This document shows, one piece after another, positions 21,420 to 49,529 of a DNA stretch of 64,000 nucleotides (the stretch's first letter is position 1; each line of letters begins with the position of its first letter). The notes under the pieces were generated by a model that was given only the letters and a program-made list of their open reading frames with translations, was not told the origin of the DNA and did no database searches. The stretch covers positions 51,178 through 115,177 of the forward strand of contig JBGVRH010000046.1 of the NCBI GenBank assembly GCA_045128275.1, given 5' to 3'. Made by a program: the position numbers and the translations under genes. The DNA is from Eubacteriales bacterium (GTDB taxonomy: Bacteria > Bacillota > Clostridia > Oscillospirales > CAG-272).

Positions 21420-21567
21420 TTCAAATTTGGGTTTGTCGAATAGATACAAGATACGGAGATACAAGATACAAGATATAGAACGGCTGTTGCCACAAGGTTA
21501 TTTCATATCTTGTATCTTTGTATCTTGTATCTTTGTATCTTTGTTTCTCACCGACAAAACGCAATTT
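21420..21567. mobile_element. TIR-bounded long-hairpin element, (GATACAA)n stem type
   Basis: Ends are TTCAAATTTGGGTTTGTCG and CCGACAAAACGCAATTT. Arms are (GATACAA)n and (TTGTATC)n around a 28-nt loop. The right end overlaps the Clp ATPase stop codon. Confidence 0.6.
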
Positions 21568-23953
21568 ACATACAAGTAACCTTCAGCTCCCCATCCTTCA
21601 CATGAACCAGAATCTGGCTCAGGCTATGGGTATAATCCGCGATGACCGCCTCGGCGATGGCGTCCTCCACGTTGCGCTGGATAAAGCGGCGCATATTGCG
21701 GGCGCCGAACTTGGCGGAGAAGGACTTTTCCGCAATGAGGGCGGCGGCGGCATCGGTGTATTTCAGGGTGAGGGACTTCTCGGCCAGGGCCTCGGTCAGC
21801 TCTCCCAGCATGATGCGGACGATGCGGGTGAAGTCGGCCTGATTCAGGGCACGGAAGGTGACGATCTCGTCCACGCGGTTGATGAACTCGGGGCGCAGGA
21901 AGGCGGAGAGCGCCTTCATGGTGGCATCCTCGGCCATATCCTCCGATCCGCCGAAGCCGATGGAGGCGGTCTGGCGATCCGAGCCCGCGTTGGTGGTCAT
22001 GACGATGACGGTGTTCTCAAAGTTGACGGTCTTGCCGTGGGCATCGGTGAGGCGGCCGTCGTCCAGGATCTGGAGCAGGATATTCAGCACGTCGGGGTGG
22101 GCCTTCTCGATCTCGTCGAACAGCACCACGGAATAGGGCTTGCGGCGGATCTTTTCGGTGAGCTGACCCGCGTCGTCGTAGCCCACGTAGCCGGGAGGAG
22201 AGCCGATGATGCGGGAGACGGACTCCTTCTCCATGAACTCTGACATATCCAGACGAATGAGGGTCTCGGGGGAGTGGAACAGGTCATTGGCGAGGGTCTT
22301 GACCAGCTCGGTCTTACCCACGCCCGTGGGGCCGGCGAAGATGAAGGACACGGGCTTGCGCTTGGCGGAGACACCCGCGCGGTTGCGCTTGACGGCGCGG
22401 GCTACAGCGTTGACCGCCTTGTCCTGGCCCACGATATGCTCCTTCAGGCGGGCTTCCAGCTTATCCACCTGCTCGAACTCGTTTTCGGTGATGGTGGTGG
22501 CGGGGATGCCCGTCCAGACCTCGATGACGGAGGCCAGCTCGGCGGCGGTGAGGGTGATGGCGGCGCAGTGAGGCTCCAGCTCGGACAGGCGGGCGGAGAG
22601 CTTCAGCTCCTCGGCCTTGATGGAGGCCAGCTCCTCGTACTTTCTCTGCATAGCACGCTCGTCTCCGTCGGGGGTCTCCTGGGTCTCCAGGGCCTCGCGG
22701 CGGGTCTTGATCTCCAGGAGGCGGTCGCGGATCTCGTAGGTCTCATTGAGGGAGCCGCTGGAGAGGGAGAGGTGGGCGGCGGCCTCGTCGAGGAGGTCGA
22801 TGGCCTTATCGGGGAGGTAGCGGTCGGTGATGTACCGCTCCGACATGGTGACGGCCTTCACCAGCACGCCGTCGGGGATTTGGATGTTGTGGTACTCCTC
22901 GTAGTAGTGCTTGATGCCCTTGAGCATGTCCACCGATTCCCCGATGGAGGGCTCCTCCACCATGACGGGCTGGAAGCGGCGCTCCAGGGCGGTGTCCTTC
23001 TCGATGTACTTGCGGTACTCGGTGAGGGTGGTGGCACCGATGATCTGCACCTCCCCGCGGGAGAGGGCGGGCTTTAAGATATTGGCGGCGTTGACGGAGC
23101 CCTCGGCCTCGCCCGTGCCTACGATGTTGTGGACTTCATCGATCACGAGGATGATGTTGCCCTCGGACTGCACCTCGCCCAGCAGCCCCAGGATACGGGA
23201 CTCGAACTGGCCGCGGAACTGGGTGCCCGCCACCAGGGCGGTGAGGTCAACGAGGTAGATCTCCTTGTTCTTCAGCTTGTAGGGCACGTCACCCTTGGCC
23301 ACGCGGATGGCCAGGGCCTCGGCAATGGCGGTCTTACCCACACCGGGCTCACCGATGAGGCAGGGGTTGTTCTTCTGACGGCGGCAGAGGATCTGGGTGA
23401 CGCGCGCCAGCTCTCTTTCACGCCCCACGATGCGATCCAGCTTCCCTCTGCGGGCGGCCTCGGTGAGGTTGCGGCAGTAGGTGGTGAGGTACTTCAATTC
23501 CTTCCCGCTCTTGCCGCGATTCTGACTCTGACCGCCGTTTCGCTTTTGGTTGTTCCCTTCGGGTCGGCCTTGGGCGGGGTGGTTCTCGCCGTTCTTTTTC
23601 AGCTCACCGAACATGGCGGCGAGGCTCTTACCGAGATTCTCCATACCGGTGGGCATTCCTTCCCCGTCCTCCCCGAAGAGGCTGGGCATATCGATGGCGG
23701 GGGCACCGCCGTCCTCCACGCCGTCGGACTCGGAGGGGGCGGCCATCATTTCGTTCATGCTGTCCTCCATGGAGGCGATCTGGTCGGGGGTGATGCCCAT
23801 CTGCCCCGCGATGCCGTCCAGCATATTGTTGACGGGCAGACCCACCTCCTTGGCACAACGCATACAGAGACCCTCAGAGGTTCTCTGTCCGTTTTCCATT
23901 TTCGTAATGAATACCACAGCGATGCGCTTGTGGCATCTGGCGCACATAACCAT
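21566..23953 (-). CDS. Clp/Hsp100 AAA+ ATPase with N-terminal zinc ribbon
   Basis: Two Walker A motifs ([18 protein letters not shown]) and a coiled-coil middle region. The N-terminus CARCHK...CMRCAK replaces the usual Clp_N repeats. Start at M69/M71 of the ORF. Confidence 0.85.
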
Positions 23954-24026
23954 ATATTTCACTTGTTGGGGGTACCCAACGGACTCCTTTGCTTGGGGTA
24001 ACGGATTAAAAACTAATCCAGGATAT

Positions 24027-24055
24027 ATCATACCACTTTTCGGGGCGGTTGTCAA
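24027..24055 (-). promoter_or_regulatory. sigma-A-type promoter of the Clp ATPase gene
   Basis: Minus strand: TTGACA, 17-nt spacer, TATGAT, about 75 nt upstream of the start. Confidence 0.5.
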
Positions 24056-24187
24056 GGGGGGGCGGAGTGAAGGGAGCGTGAAAGCAAGGTGACTGTGGGC
24101 CCCGTTACGCTTCCCCGGCACGCGAATGAGCCCCCCGCAATCGCGGGGGGCTCTCACTGTATAGTCGAGGGTAGGATGCCGTCGGGA

Positions 24188-47630: not shown

Positions 47631-48650
47631 TCAAGGCGTGATGATAAACTTTCCCCTTGCGCGGAGCTGGCCATCCGCCAGGATCTCGGGGAGCTTGTCC
47701 AGGGGCTCGCAGGCGTAGACCATGGAGGAGACGTCGATCTTGCCGCCGTCGATGAGATCCAGGGCGCGCTTCTGGGTATAGGGGTTGATGAAGGAGGCCT
47801 TGAGGGTGATCTCCTTCTTGAAGATCTCGAAGGGCTTTATGGGCATCTCGTCGGCGGGGGCGGTAAGGCCGAAGAGCATGACGGTGGACTTCTTGCCCGC
47901 GATGGCAATGGCCTGCTGCATGGTGGCGACCTTACCTACGCACTCGATGACGCAGGCGATGCGGTCGATGCCCTTGGCGGCCAGCACGGCTTTCACGTCC
48001 TCGGTCATAGGGTCGATGGTGAGATCCGCGCCCAGCTTGACGGCGAGGTCACGCTTCTCGGCTACGGGCTCCATGAGGATGAGCTTGCCCGCTCCAGAAA
48101 GCTTGGCCAGCTGGAGCATGAGCAGACCGATCATGCCGCCGCCGATGACGGCTACGGTGTCGCCGGGCTTGATCTCGCAGAGGTCGATTCCGTGGACACA
48201 GCAGGCCACGGGCTCGGTCATGGCGGCCATCTCGTAGGTGGTGGTGTCGGCGATCTTGTAGACCTGGGACTGGGGGACGGCGCAGTACTCGGCAAAGCCG
48301 CCGTGGACGGTGGTGCCGATGCCGATCATGTGCTCGCAGAAGTGGCCGATGCCCGCCTTGCAGTAGGGGCATTCGTTGCAGAGCTTATTGGGGTCGACGC
48401 AAACGCGGTCGCCCACCTTGACCGAGGTCACGCCCTCGCCCACGGCCTCCACGATGCCCGCGAACTCATGGCCCAGGACTGTCCCCGCGGGGGTGGCGGC
48501 GGCTCCCTCGTCGCCGTGATAGATATGAACGTCGGTACCGCAGATACCGCAGGCCTTGACCTTCAGGAGGACTTCGCCTGCCTTGGGGGTGGGCTTGGGA
48601 ATATCGAGGATGCGGAGATCAGTGGCTTGATAGAATACGGCGGCTTTCAT
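47631..48650 (-). CDS. zinc-dependent alcohol dehydrogenase family (threonine/sorbitol dehydrogenase-like)
   Basis: 339 aa with motifs GHEFAGIV, structural-zinc CNECPYCKAGIGHFC and GGGMIGL. Confidence 0.9.
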   Translation of the reverse strand: MKAAVFYQATDLRILDIPKPTPKAGEVLLKVKACGICGTDVHIYHGDEGAAATPAGTVLGHEFAGIVEAVGEGVTSVKVGDRVCVDPNKLCNECPYCKAGIGHFCEHMIGIGTTVHGGFAEYCAVPQSQVYKIADTTTYEMAAMTEPVACCVHGIDLCEIKPGDTVAVIGGGMIGLLMLQLAKLSGAGKLILMEPVAEKRDLAVKLGADLTIDPMTEDVKAVLAAKGIDRIACVIECVGKVATMQQAIAIAGKKSTVMLFGLTAPADEMPIKPFEIFKKEITLKASFINPYTQKRALDLIDGGKIDVSSMVYACEPLDKLPEILADGQLRARGKFIITP

Positions 48651-48827
48651 AGGGTTACCTCCCGTTGTTTATGTTGTCTTTAGTATAGCACAGATCGGTC
48701 GGGAAATCAAGATGTCAGCGGAAACTTTTGACGGTGTATGGGAAATTTGTTTCCCGCCGCATACCGCGCGTCCCGCCTGTCCATACTCTCCCTACCCGCA
48801 AGGGAATCCATATTTCAGGAGGAGACT

Positions 48828-49283
48828 ATGGTACTCACCCAAAAGGAAGCCACCCTCATCAAGGATCTGAAGGGCCAGGAGCAGCTCTGCATCGACAAGT
48901 ACACGAAGCACGCCGAGTGCGCCCACGATCCCCAGCTCAAGCAGCTATTCAGCCGTATCGCAGAGGTGGAAAGGGGGCATCTGAGCACTCTGACCCAGAT
49001 GGAGAACGGCACCGCGCCCGCCACGGGTGGCGGCGGTCAGTCCTCGATCCCCGCCTTTACCGCCTACCACACCCAGGCCGAGACCCCCGAGAAGAAGCAG
49101 GACTGCTACCTCTGCACCGACCTGCTCACCACCGAGAAGCACGCCTCGGGGCTGTATGACACCTGCGTCTTTGAATTCGGTCAGACCGAGCTGCGCAAGG
49201 CCTTGAACCACATCCAGACCGAGGAGCAGGAGCACGGGGAGATGATCTACAAGTATATGAAGGCGAATTCTATGTATTCGTGA
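48828..49283 (+). CDS. cotF: spore coat protein F-like (Coat_F domain)
   Basis: 151 aa from MVLTQKEATLIKDLKGQEQLCIDKYTKHAE.... AGGAGG RBS. Confidence 0.75.
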   Translation: MVLTQKEATLIKDLKGQEQLCIDKYTKHAECAHDPQLKQLFSRIAEVERGHLSTLTQMENGTAPATGGGGQSSIPAFTAYHTQAETPEKKQDCYLCTDLLTTEKHASGLYDTCVFEFGQTELRKALNHIQTEEQEHGEMIYKYMKANSMYS

Positions 49284-49316
49284 GCTTTTTGGGGAGCATC
49301 GATGACGATGCTCCCT

Positions 49317-49529
49317 TTCAAATTTGGGTTTATCGCAGAGCGATAAACCCAAATTTGAAGTGAAAAGTGAAGAGTGAAAAGTGAAGAGTGGAGGTGCAGA
49401 TCCTTCGGATCTGTCCATTTTTGATCAAAAAGAAGGAAACCGAAGGTTTCCCTCCTCACCTCTTCACTATTCACTATTACTTATTACTTCAATTGCGGTT
49501 TTCGGTCGCAGACCGATAAACTGCAATTT
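49317..49529. mobile_element. composite hairpin-ended element with 28-nt conserved core, (GTGAAGA)n stem type
   Basis: Perfect 18-bp P hairpin CAAATTTGGGTTTATCGC-aga-GCGATAAACCCAAATTTG, GTGAARA arms, core identical to 44252-44279 at 49393-49420, and Q hairpin AATTGCGGTTTTCGGTC-gca-GACCGATAAACTGCAATT. Confidence 0.6.

Follow-up and report, generated by a model that had tools for sequence, protein, structure and literature searches.

A clade-restricted family of non-coding hairpin repeats with conserved ends and varied palindromic interiors in uncultured gut Clostridia

What kind of element keeps its two ends while the long hairpin between them is replaced? The question is raised by five intergenic sites in a 64-kb stretch of DNA, hereafter the window, from an uncultured member of the Clostridia (Eubacteriales bacterium; GenBank assembly GCA_045128275.1, contig JBGVRH010000046.1, positions 51,178 to 115,177). 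A first-pass annotation had described these sites as long imperfect palindromes with shared, imperfectly inverted ends around stems specific to each copy, fitting neither a plain miniature inverted-repeat transposable element (MITE) nor a repetitive extragenic palindrome (REP), a bacterial interspersed mosaic element (BIME) or a terminator. Here the sites are numbered 1 to 5 by position, their two ends are called A and B, and loci of relatives that were compared with the window carry L-numbers (L017, L112 and so on). The sites belong to a large, clade-restricted and hitherto undescribed family of non-coding hairpin repeats of uncultured gut Clostridia.

The shared ends are read directly from the sequence at all five sites: end A is TTCAAATTTGGGTTTRWCG and end B is CGATAAAC..CAATTT or, in longer form, TTCAAATTTGGGTTT[A/G][T/A]CG and CG..AAAC..CAATTT. 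With up to two mismatches, AAATTTGGGTTTRWCG occurs seven times in the window against 0.05 occurrences expected from shuffled sequences, and the B-type motif is more frequent than in every shuffle. The two ends are indeed imperfect inverted copies of each other, AAATT-TGG-GTTTATCG in one and AAATT-G[C/G][A/G]-GTTTATCG in the other, so that the first-pass annotation was right on both counts.

The five sites fall into two types. Type I (sites 1, 2 and 4) is a single long hairpin, at the base of which ends A and B pair with each other. Site 1 (21420..21567, + orientation, reading from A to B) has end A at 21420-21438, end B at 21551-21567 and (GATACAA)n arms at about 21442-21475 and 21499-21532. 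Site 4 (47459..47597, +; end A 47459-47477, end B 47581-47597) has the same (GATACAA)n stem, and the two are recent copies of one another, 90% identical over 114 nt. Site 2 (42356..42557, +; end A 42356-42374, end B 42541-42557) has GC-rich arms at 42389-42425 and 42487-42523. Type II (sites 3 and 5) is a three-part element, in which each end forms its own self-paired hairpin and repeat arms surround a terminator-like centre. Site 3 (44123..44435) lies in - orientation, reading from B' to A' on the + strand, and consists of a B-type end hairpin at 44123..44161 (AAATTGCAGTTTATCGGTC-TCC-GACCGACAAACTGCAAG), a centre of two short facing G+C hairpins with an A/T-rich spacer between them at 44252..44311, and an A-type end hairpin at 44396..44435 ((TC)ATTTGGGTTTATCGC-AGA-GCGATAAACCCAAATTTGAA). 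Site 5 (49317..49529, +, A to B) has its A hairpin at 49317-49359, its B hairpin at 49490-49529, (GTGAAGA)n arms at about 49359-49392 and 49453-49489, and a twin-hairpin centre at 49393-49451. The A hairpin reads TTCAAATTTGGGTTTATCGC-AGA-GCGATAAACCCAAATTTGAA at both sites, which also have the same central twin hairpin. The view that stems are copy-specific thus holds between some sites only, as sites 1 and 4 share a stem and sites 3 and 5 an architecture.

Folding supports the description of every site as a long imperfect palindrome. The DNA minimum free energies of the single strand are -31.8, -58.2, -99.5, -31.5 and -63.8 kcal/mol for sites 1 to 5, with z-scores of -7.2 to -13.1, and none of 100-200 shuffles was as stable. 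The conserved end is about 27 nt long and sharply bounded, with an outer part (TTC)AAATT[T/G][G/C][G/A]GTTT[A/G]TCGG followed by a less conserved KSWGTT; the three variable positions are TGG in A-type and G[C/G][A/G] in B-type ends. A preceding TTC is found at about 95% of the A-type ends, a figure affected by ascertainment bias, and at about 40% of the B-type ends. In the terminal stem of 46 A..B pairs, the outer five base pairs are formed in all; 43 pairs have a T·C mismatch at position 9, next to which G·G or G-C is found at position 10 and G·T or G-C at position 11. Further inward the positions covary, a single column holding, for example, G-C, C-G, T-A and A-T. This sample was seeded with A-type ends, and the asymmetry between A and B is thus partly a matter of ascertainment. 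To our knowledge, based on an informal comparison, the conserved core does not fit parS, the DnaA box, the CodY or cre sites, the Spo0A 0A box, dif/Xer or IHF sites; TGTCGAA, which corresponds to the 0A box, is present in some copies only.

The first-pass annotation had proposed a search for the end motifs in other genomes, and they proved to be widespread. A scan with TTCAAATTTGGGTTTRWCG of one genome per species (representatives of GTDB) returned at least 105 stretches. Among the matches listed, at least 17 species-level metagenome-assembled genomes (MAGs) carry the family, and a few chance matches fall in unrelated phyla. The MAGs are labelled Clostridia, Eubacteriales, Oscillospiraceae or Candidatus Avispirillum and derive mostly from the guts of ruminants and other animals. 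The window itself has a G+C content of about 58%. Among its gene products are ClpC-, Lon-, RsmF- and spore-coat-F-like proteins, and the relatives closest to its RsmF are no more than 89% identical. In the listed loci and the window together there are 120 occurrences of the A motif, and nearly all of those not cut by a contig end have a B end 98-545 nt downstream, forming 49 A..B pairs, while most of the remaining A ends have degenerate B ends. Roughly half of the A ends are no more than 300 nt away from the end of a contig, a pattern typical of repeats whose high copy number interrupts the assembly of short reads. Among about 115 genuine copies, no A..B pair encloses an open reading frame (ORF).

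The impression that the elements match no known repeat family was borne out by the searches carried out here. A scan of the whole window at the Rfam gathering thresholds returned only transfer-messenger RNA (tmRNA), the same scan of nine related loci returned no match, and an E-value scan of 42.2-49.7 kb found no family, sub-threshold hits being generic miRNA-hairpin noise. Comparison of site 5 with the PLSDB plasmids and INPHARED phages by blastn gave matches at chance level only, and a scan of IMG/VR gave one genuine copy (L201) and two chance matches. No occurrence of the end sequences was found in the literature searched, where keyword matches were to general work on MITEs and on REP doublets forming hairpins (REPINs).

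The interiors are not unique to each copy, as the five sites alone might suggest. In the relatives they form recurrent subfamilies, built from modules that are common to several copies and species and that also occur without ends. The 48 complete copies fall into 18 interior clusters, several of which span species. In at least 8 of these clusters, GTAG plus a GC-rich hairpin occurs as an inverted doublet, the design known from REPs and REPINs. Other interiors are of the types CCCTCTCACCGCTTCGCGGAGCTCCCCC... and GTCATCCTGAGCG..., or consist of heptamer arrays, arrays of mini-hairpins of 18-20 nt, strings of perfect palindromes of 26-30 nt centred on TTTTGAAAA, or other GC-rich palindromes. Variants of the B end (CTG, CCC, CTC and others) are mixed inside single interior clusters, indicating that ends and interiors reassort. 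Copies are also nested: L038 has two A ends 33 nt apart (2415/2448), and in L078 an inner copy lies in the loop of an outer one. Of 164 interior-like regions, 40 have no strict end motif within 120 nt. In several of them the ends are degenerate, and others, (GATACAA)n hairpins among them, have no ends at all.

Heptamer and 18-mer arrays without ends are found in the window as well. The tmRNA gene (2113-2480, - strand; 145 bits in Rfam) is directly followed by an (AGTGAAG)n heptamer array with a small hairpin (2486-2567); the heptamer is that of the site 5 arms, here without A or B ends. Further heptamer arrays lie at 42283-42314, 40264-40295, 54140-54187 and 54341-54375. An array of (AATGCGT/AATTCGT)n spans the last codons and the stop of the GNAT gene, where it is conserved in L114, and the same unit forms inverted arms around a non-palindromic spacer of 166 nt at 54.1-54.4 kb. 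The array behind the gene that ends at 40265 is (AATGCAA)n. An ORF of 124 aa (30920-31294) that matches the Pfam family of '23S rRNA-intervening sequence proteins' (PF05635, E 3.5e-23) is located between two inverted arrays of 18-nt mini-hairpins resembling GGGCATATCTCGCCCGAA (30799-30877 and 31299-31378), and a third array of this unit is found 3 kb away (34163-34244). The arrangement resembles a hairpin-bounded cassette outside any rRNA gene.

Whether the family is mobile can be judged from orthologous sites, for which the first-pass annotation had asked for a comparison of filled and empty states. Three orthologous spacers were compared among relatives, the proteins of the flanking genes being no more than 89% identical, and each was found empty, filled or differently filled in different genomes. 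The spacer between rsmF and the DUF2079 gene starts with ggtggTAA|ATT[G/T]CAG in the window, L112, L115, L116, L117 and L118 (T in L112 only), and ends at AAATTTGAA followed by a homologous flank in the window, L116 and L117. Between these boundaries there are 3-4 different interiors: the window has a type II element with mini-hairpins of 20 nt, L112 has (AATGCAG)n arms but no A hairpin, and two versions of the TTTTGAAAA-palindrome type are found, one in L115/L116 and one in L117. The spacer is empty in L017. Upstream of rsmF, the window has an element reading A..B and L017 one reading B'..A' with a different interior, both ending 34 nt before the ATG. A type II copy is present in L114, the B end and flank of the window recur in L113, and L112, L115, L116 and L117 have a 5-nt spacer and no element. 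In the spacer downstream of prfB, the boundary TTTTGCGTT|AAATTG is common to L107/L109 and L113, whose interiors differ, and L114 is empty. Presence, absence and replacement at orthologous sites show that the family is dynamic. The RsmF proteins of L115 and L116 are identical, but exactly from the inner edge of the terminal motif onwards the two loci differ and lead into different genes; this is a rearrangement breakpoint inside an element. A search for target-site duplications in 44 copies found no excess of identical 2-8-mers at any boundary offset.

Two further observations concern the surroundings of the ends. A sequence resembling CCGTATAAACCATCACATTC lies about 20-40 nt upstream of the element-less rsmF genes of L107-L111 and L119 and could be an eroded remnant of an element end. 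In a subset of elements the motif GTAAC(N)(A/G)TTCAGCC plus 3-5 nt is found just outside the ends, inverted on the two sides: outside end A in L033, L034, L050, L066 and L094, and outside end B in L033 and L115. This motif could be a target that is preferred on insertion, or else a further layer of nesting on the outside.

The placement of the elements relative to genes is strongly directional. Genes were predicted with a self-trained codon model, seeded by amino-acid composition, in which overlapping ORFs compete, and with a Pfam check for the window; a plain self-trained ORF model was dropped because it did not separate sense ORFs from shadow ORFs. In 21 copies a start codon lies on the A side and a stop codon on the B side, compared with 6 copies in the opposite arrangement (stop at A, start at B), 6 with stops on both sides and 4 with starts on both sides. 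Between end A, which closely precedes the ribosome binding site (RBS), and the start codon there are 10-46 nt. In 10 copies, including sites 1 and 3, end B and the stop codon have exactly 2 nt in common (T-AA|ATTG...). Counts independent of the gene model agree: an outward RBS plus start codon within 55 nt is found at 45% of 134 A-type ends vs 10% of 51 B-type ends, and a preceding T, making TAA, at 41% of B-type vs 3% of A-type ends. The usual transcript would thus run through a stop codon, the B' end, the hairpin, the A' end, the RBS and a start codon, with the element filling nearly the whole spacer, so that type I copies must be read through if the downstream gene is to be expressed.

The sites in the window illustrate these contexts. 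At site 1, the stop (21566-21568) of a clpC-like gene on the - strand overlaps end B, and the gene at 19742-21406 (-) starts 13 nt from end A. Site 2 is in the less common orientation, with A to B along the direction of transcription, and lies between the GNAT gene (stop at 42299) and rsmF, which starts at 42592, 34 nt from end B. The first two bases of site 3 complete the rsmF stop (TAA, 44122-44124), and the DUF2079 gene starts 43-44 nt past the A' end. Site 4 is flanked by convergent genes, one at 46278-47387 (+) with its own terminator-like hairpin and an ADH-like gene at 47631-48650 (-). Site 5 follows a CoatF-like gene (stop 49283) with a hairpin of its own and precedes the promoter-like site of lon (49590-49618).

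Signals for transcription were sought by consensus scans. The terminator-like pattern of a G+C hairpin with a T tract was matched only by the type II centres (site 5, + strand; site 3, - strand). A T tract is lacking in type I copies, beyond which the next gene begins after 10-46 nt, in agreement with the earlier remark that the elements are not plain terminators. No promoter was found in the ends, and since the start codon at 10-46 nt from end A leaves too little room for one, the idea of an outward promoter was rejected. In L017 (region 1360-1640), the element at 1407-1626 directly follows a TTGACA-17-TATAAT promoter. There, the 220-nt hairpin would make up the 5' untranslated region (UTR) of the next gene, the ATG of which follows the A' end after 17 nt. 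Nothing was deduced about the direction of replication from GC skew, which in the window appears to follow the coding strand.

How far do these features resemble known systems? The rejection of a plain MITE is supported by the missing copy-specific duplication, and no parent insertion sequence (IS) was found among about 115 genuine copies or in the window, but with respect to REPs and BIMEs the first-pass annotation went too far, as the architecture fits mosaic palindromic repeats (BIME, REPIN, BOX) better than it allowed. As in BIMEs and in REPs and REPINs with their REP-associated tyrosine transposases (RAYTs), there are high-copy extragenic palindromes, inverted doublets that fold into long hairpins, and a mosaic of few module types; as in REP/REPIN-RAYT systems, no target duplication is seen. 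At least 8 interior types are doublets of GTAG plus hairpin, and a RAYT-like Y1 gene is present in the window. The GTAG termini of REPs often supply the stop codon of the flanking ORF (PMC3733652), and the TAA|ATTG junctions of the present family are a parallel to this. Unlike in REPs, the conserved ends are an A/T-rich outer duplex of about 27 nt without a GTAG or CGTC tag, the tag being confined to interior modules, and this duplex brackets many unrelated palindromes; unlike in REPIN-RAYT systems, the RAYT-like gene is not flanked by A/B ends. The REPIN/RAYT literature that was found concerns Pseudomonas and enterobacteria, not Clostridia. The likeness to BIMEs, whose modules likewise recombine, nest and occur alone, is one of design, the units being unrelated in sequence to the Y/Z REPs of E. 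coli.

Bacterial MITEs, such as Correia/NEMIS of Neisseria, RUP, ERIC, EFAR and Nezha, are gene-adjacent, co-transcribed elements with robust hairpins able to alter the fate of mRNA (PMC3733652). Like these elements, which are non-coding, 100-500 bp long and have terminal inverted repeats of 15-30 bp, the present family is small (98-545 nt, with ends of about 27 nt). It differs in the absence of a copy-specific target duplication, in the lack of any parent IS found, in its directional placement between stop codon and RBS, and in the use of one pair of ends for at least 18 unrelated palindromic interiors. Pneumococcal BOX elements (boxA-boxBn-boxC) are modular, non-coding and intergenic, with terminal modules able to pair and a variable middle. 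The conserved terminal modules around a variable middle are a common feature, but the middle of BOX is a variable number of boxB whereas here it is one of many unrelated palindromes, and there is no similarity in sequence. The attC sites of integrons have short conserved ends, a stem conserved in structure and not in sequence, and conserved unpaired or mismatched positions. The ends and fold, rather than the stem sequence, are conserved here too. However, the RYYYAAC/GTTRRRY cores are absent (the ends read AAATTKSRGTTTATCG), and there is neither an integrase gene nor a cassette array, the neighbours being clpC, rsmF, DUF2079, ADH, CoatF-like and lon genes. Palindrome-associated transposable elements (PATEs), which are derived from IS200/IS605, leave no target duplication, have hairpins at both ends and insert with a strand or orientation bias; the lack of duplication, the end hairpins of type II copies and the biased orientation are all found in this family. 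Unlike in PATEs, the ends of type I copies are true terminal inverted repeats and together form a duplex; no conserved target of 4-5 nt is apparent among empty sites that are too diverged, and no related IS carrying tnpA was found. Eukaryotic Foldback transposons have long inverted arms of short tandem repeats and a variable centre but are much larger and make target duplications, and the likeness to them is one of form only.

With moderate confidence, we interpret the family as a mosaic of mobile palindromes resembling MITEs, REPINs and BIMEs, which are non-autonomous, mobilised in trans and co-transcribed with the flanking genes. The elements would be selfish, an enzyme acting in trans propagating them by way of the conserved terminal duplex. 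Their mobilisation would leave no duplication and probably take place on a folded single strand, as in REP/REPIN-RAYT systems or IS200/IS605. Such a mechanism is suggested by three features, namely the absence of a copy-specific target duplication, the strongly directional placement, and the inverted partner that is always present for each end; in type II copies this partner lies beside each end, although a protein binding double-stranded DNA would need none. A classical cut-and-paste MITE mobilised by a DDE transposase fits the three features less well. Nested insertion, together with ectopic recombination or gene conversion via the common ends, would reshuffle interiors and end variants, and this reshuffling could account for conserved termini combined with replaced yet self-complementary stems. 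Type I copies would be co-transcribed in operons or 5' UTRs, where effects on RNA (as a processing site, a barrier to degradation, or interference with termination at the abutting stop codon) are likely to be a side effect, and type II copies would probably act as portable bidirectional terminators.

The search for an enzyme yielded a single lead. A RAYT/IS200-like Y1 ORF at 35393-35974, which overlaps the stop of an upstream tRNA methyltransferase gene, contains two inverted GTAG plus hairpin sequences inside its frame (35552-35582 and 35762-35792), and in other MAGs (L013, L031, L033) A/B elements have this hairpin sequence as their interior. The gene shows that such enzymes and GTAG hairpins exist in this genome, but it could not be tied to the A/B ends.

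Several points weigh against the interpretation as mobile palindromes. Nothing ties an enzyme to the ends: A/B ends are absent from both sides of the RAYT-like gene, whose score for Pfam Y1_Tnp (22.9 bits) lies just under the 23-bit cut-off, and 80 metagenomic loci with RAYT-like relatives have no A/B ends, which says little as these relatives are no more than 45% identical and come from other lineages. No empty A-B unit without an interior was found, the shortest unit being 98 nt, which weakens a pure landing-pad model. All comparisons of empty and filled sites are at 89% protein identity or less, and at this divergence the exact chemistry of the junctions would be unreadable; an invariant duplication may also be hidden in the conserved AATTT, where it would be invisible to the permutation test. 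The asymmetry of A and B is partly due to seeding of the copy set with the A motif, and the loci retrieved by way of a flanking gene added five further B..A pairs and one element, in L112, with two identical AAATTTCAG ends. The gene context rests on the self-trained ORF model, backed by the independent signal counts and by Pfam in the window.

The rival explanations account for parts of the same evidence. A classical MITE derived from a DDE-type IS, inserting at a fixed palindromic target such as (TTC)AAATTT(GAA), would have its AATTT duplication hidden in the ends and a parent IS that is rare, diverged or lost. Sharp terminal inverted repeats of about 27 nt, small size, the lack of an ORF, and many dispersed and nested copies all agree with this, as do the AATTT direct repeat at both ends, the perfect palindrome TTCAAATTTGAA, the TTC in front of many B-type ends too, and the blindness of the permutation test to an invariant duplication. 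We nevertheless regard it as unlikely. No parent IS was found among the about 115 genuine copies, whose A..B pairs never enclose an ORF, or in the window, and empty sites have neither AATTT nor AAATTT at the insertion point (L017, TAAAACCTATTTTT; L114, TTTTTCGTCGGGAG). A transposase binding double-stranded DNA also leaves unexplained the inverted partner beside each type II end, the palindromic nature of every interior, and the different gene contexts of A and B. Slightly less likely still is an element selected at the level of RNA, that is, a duplex and hairpin serving in the transcript as a processing site (for RNase III or another enzyme), as an insulator that keeps cistrons apart or, where a central terminator is present, as a 3' UTR hairpin, and spread by recombination only. 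Correia elements and long REP/BIME hairpins do affect mRNA stability, and REPs within about 15 nt of the stop codon affect translation. Type I copies fill the spacer between stop and RBS and are transcribed if the downstream gene is expressed, the L017 element directly follows a consensus promoter, and placement is directional relative to transcription. The terminator-like centre of type II would split A from B in RNA, and in exactly these copies each end has a local partner.

The first-pass annotation had taken G opposite T in the arms as a weak hint of RNA pairing, and the excess is real but weak: summed over copies there are about 315 G·U pairs on the A to B strand vs about 227 on the other. 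With RNA parameters the A to B strand is on average 3-4 kcal/mol more stable than its complement, even without the conserved ends (Wilcoxon p about 0.002), although copies within one subfamily are not independent and nothing is built on this bias here. In the commonest gene context, the favoured strand is antisense to the mRNA (mean difference -4.5 kcal/mol; 16/21 copies favour A to B), and the argument for selection on RNA from G·U pairs was rejected for this reason. In the mRNA sense the terminal duplex has a 3x3 internal loop or a G·A mismatch, 6/27 co-directional cases and the convergent and divergent contexts are oriented otherwise, no Rfam family matches, and the origin of more than 100 copies with identical ends is left unexplained. 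A third explanation, in which the ends are sites of a structure-specific recombinase on the folded strand, as in attC or pdif, and the interiors are hairpin cassettes exchanged in place, seems the least probable. The three orthologous spacers, which keep their outer boundaries while the interior differs between species (one differing in A/B orientation as well), are in line with it, and so are the reassortment of end variants with interiors, the absence of a target duplication, and the near-invariant T·C mismatch in a terminal stem inside which structure alone is conserved. Against this, the window has no integrase or recombinase gene besides the weak Y1 match, and the elements lack attC core sites. 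Ordinary homologous recombination between two members of one subfamily explains the L115/L116 breakpoint equally well, and the frequency of the mismatch was determined in pairs found by their A ends, symmetric-end copies being known. A related suggestion, about as doubtful as the RNA-level explanation, is that a structure-specific enzyme that acts on the folded single strand might recognise the terminal duplex with its near-invariant T·C mismatch, the elements being directional stop-to-RBS cassettes with swapped interiors; the enzyme could be a domesticated HUH/Y1 protein or another recombinase.

Two other features of the window were observed in passing. A low-G+C island at 27788-29032 (0.42 vs about 0.58), with an Mrr-type restriction endonuclease domain and HNH repeats associated with homing endonucleases, was probably acquired horizontally. 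The leaders at 60525-60601 and 63033-63109, which are 90% identical, precede adjacent paralogous genes (60605-63019 and 63084 onwards) and have the layout of an attenuator, with a promoter-like site (TTGACA...TATGATATAAT), a perfect hairpin (ATAATGGCATTATCGAGACAATCGGTAATGCCATTAT) and a run of T.

The family adds a high-copy repeat system to the poorly known uncultured Clostridia of animal guts, for which none appears to have been described. With about half of the copies at contig ends, such repeats break short-read MAGs, and they mark rearrangement breakpoints, as in L115 vs L116. They supply stop codons and separate cistrons, and thus matter for gene calling and operon prediction; type II copies would be portable terminators, if it is true that transcription is terminated in both directions. 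The interest of the family is moderate for specialists in repeats and for the assembly and annotation of gut MAGs, and would be high only if the ends are sites of a structure-specific recombinase. One pair of ends with many interiors, turning over at fixed boundaries, is a natural test of what an enzyme recognises, the ends and the fold or the sequence. If the ends are indeed recombinase sites, the logic of attC would exist outside integrons, in a Gram-positive clade of the gut.

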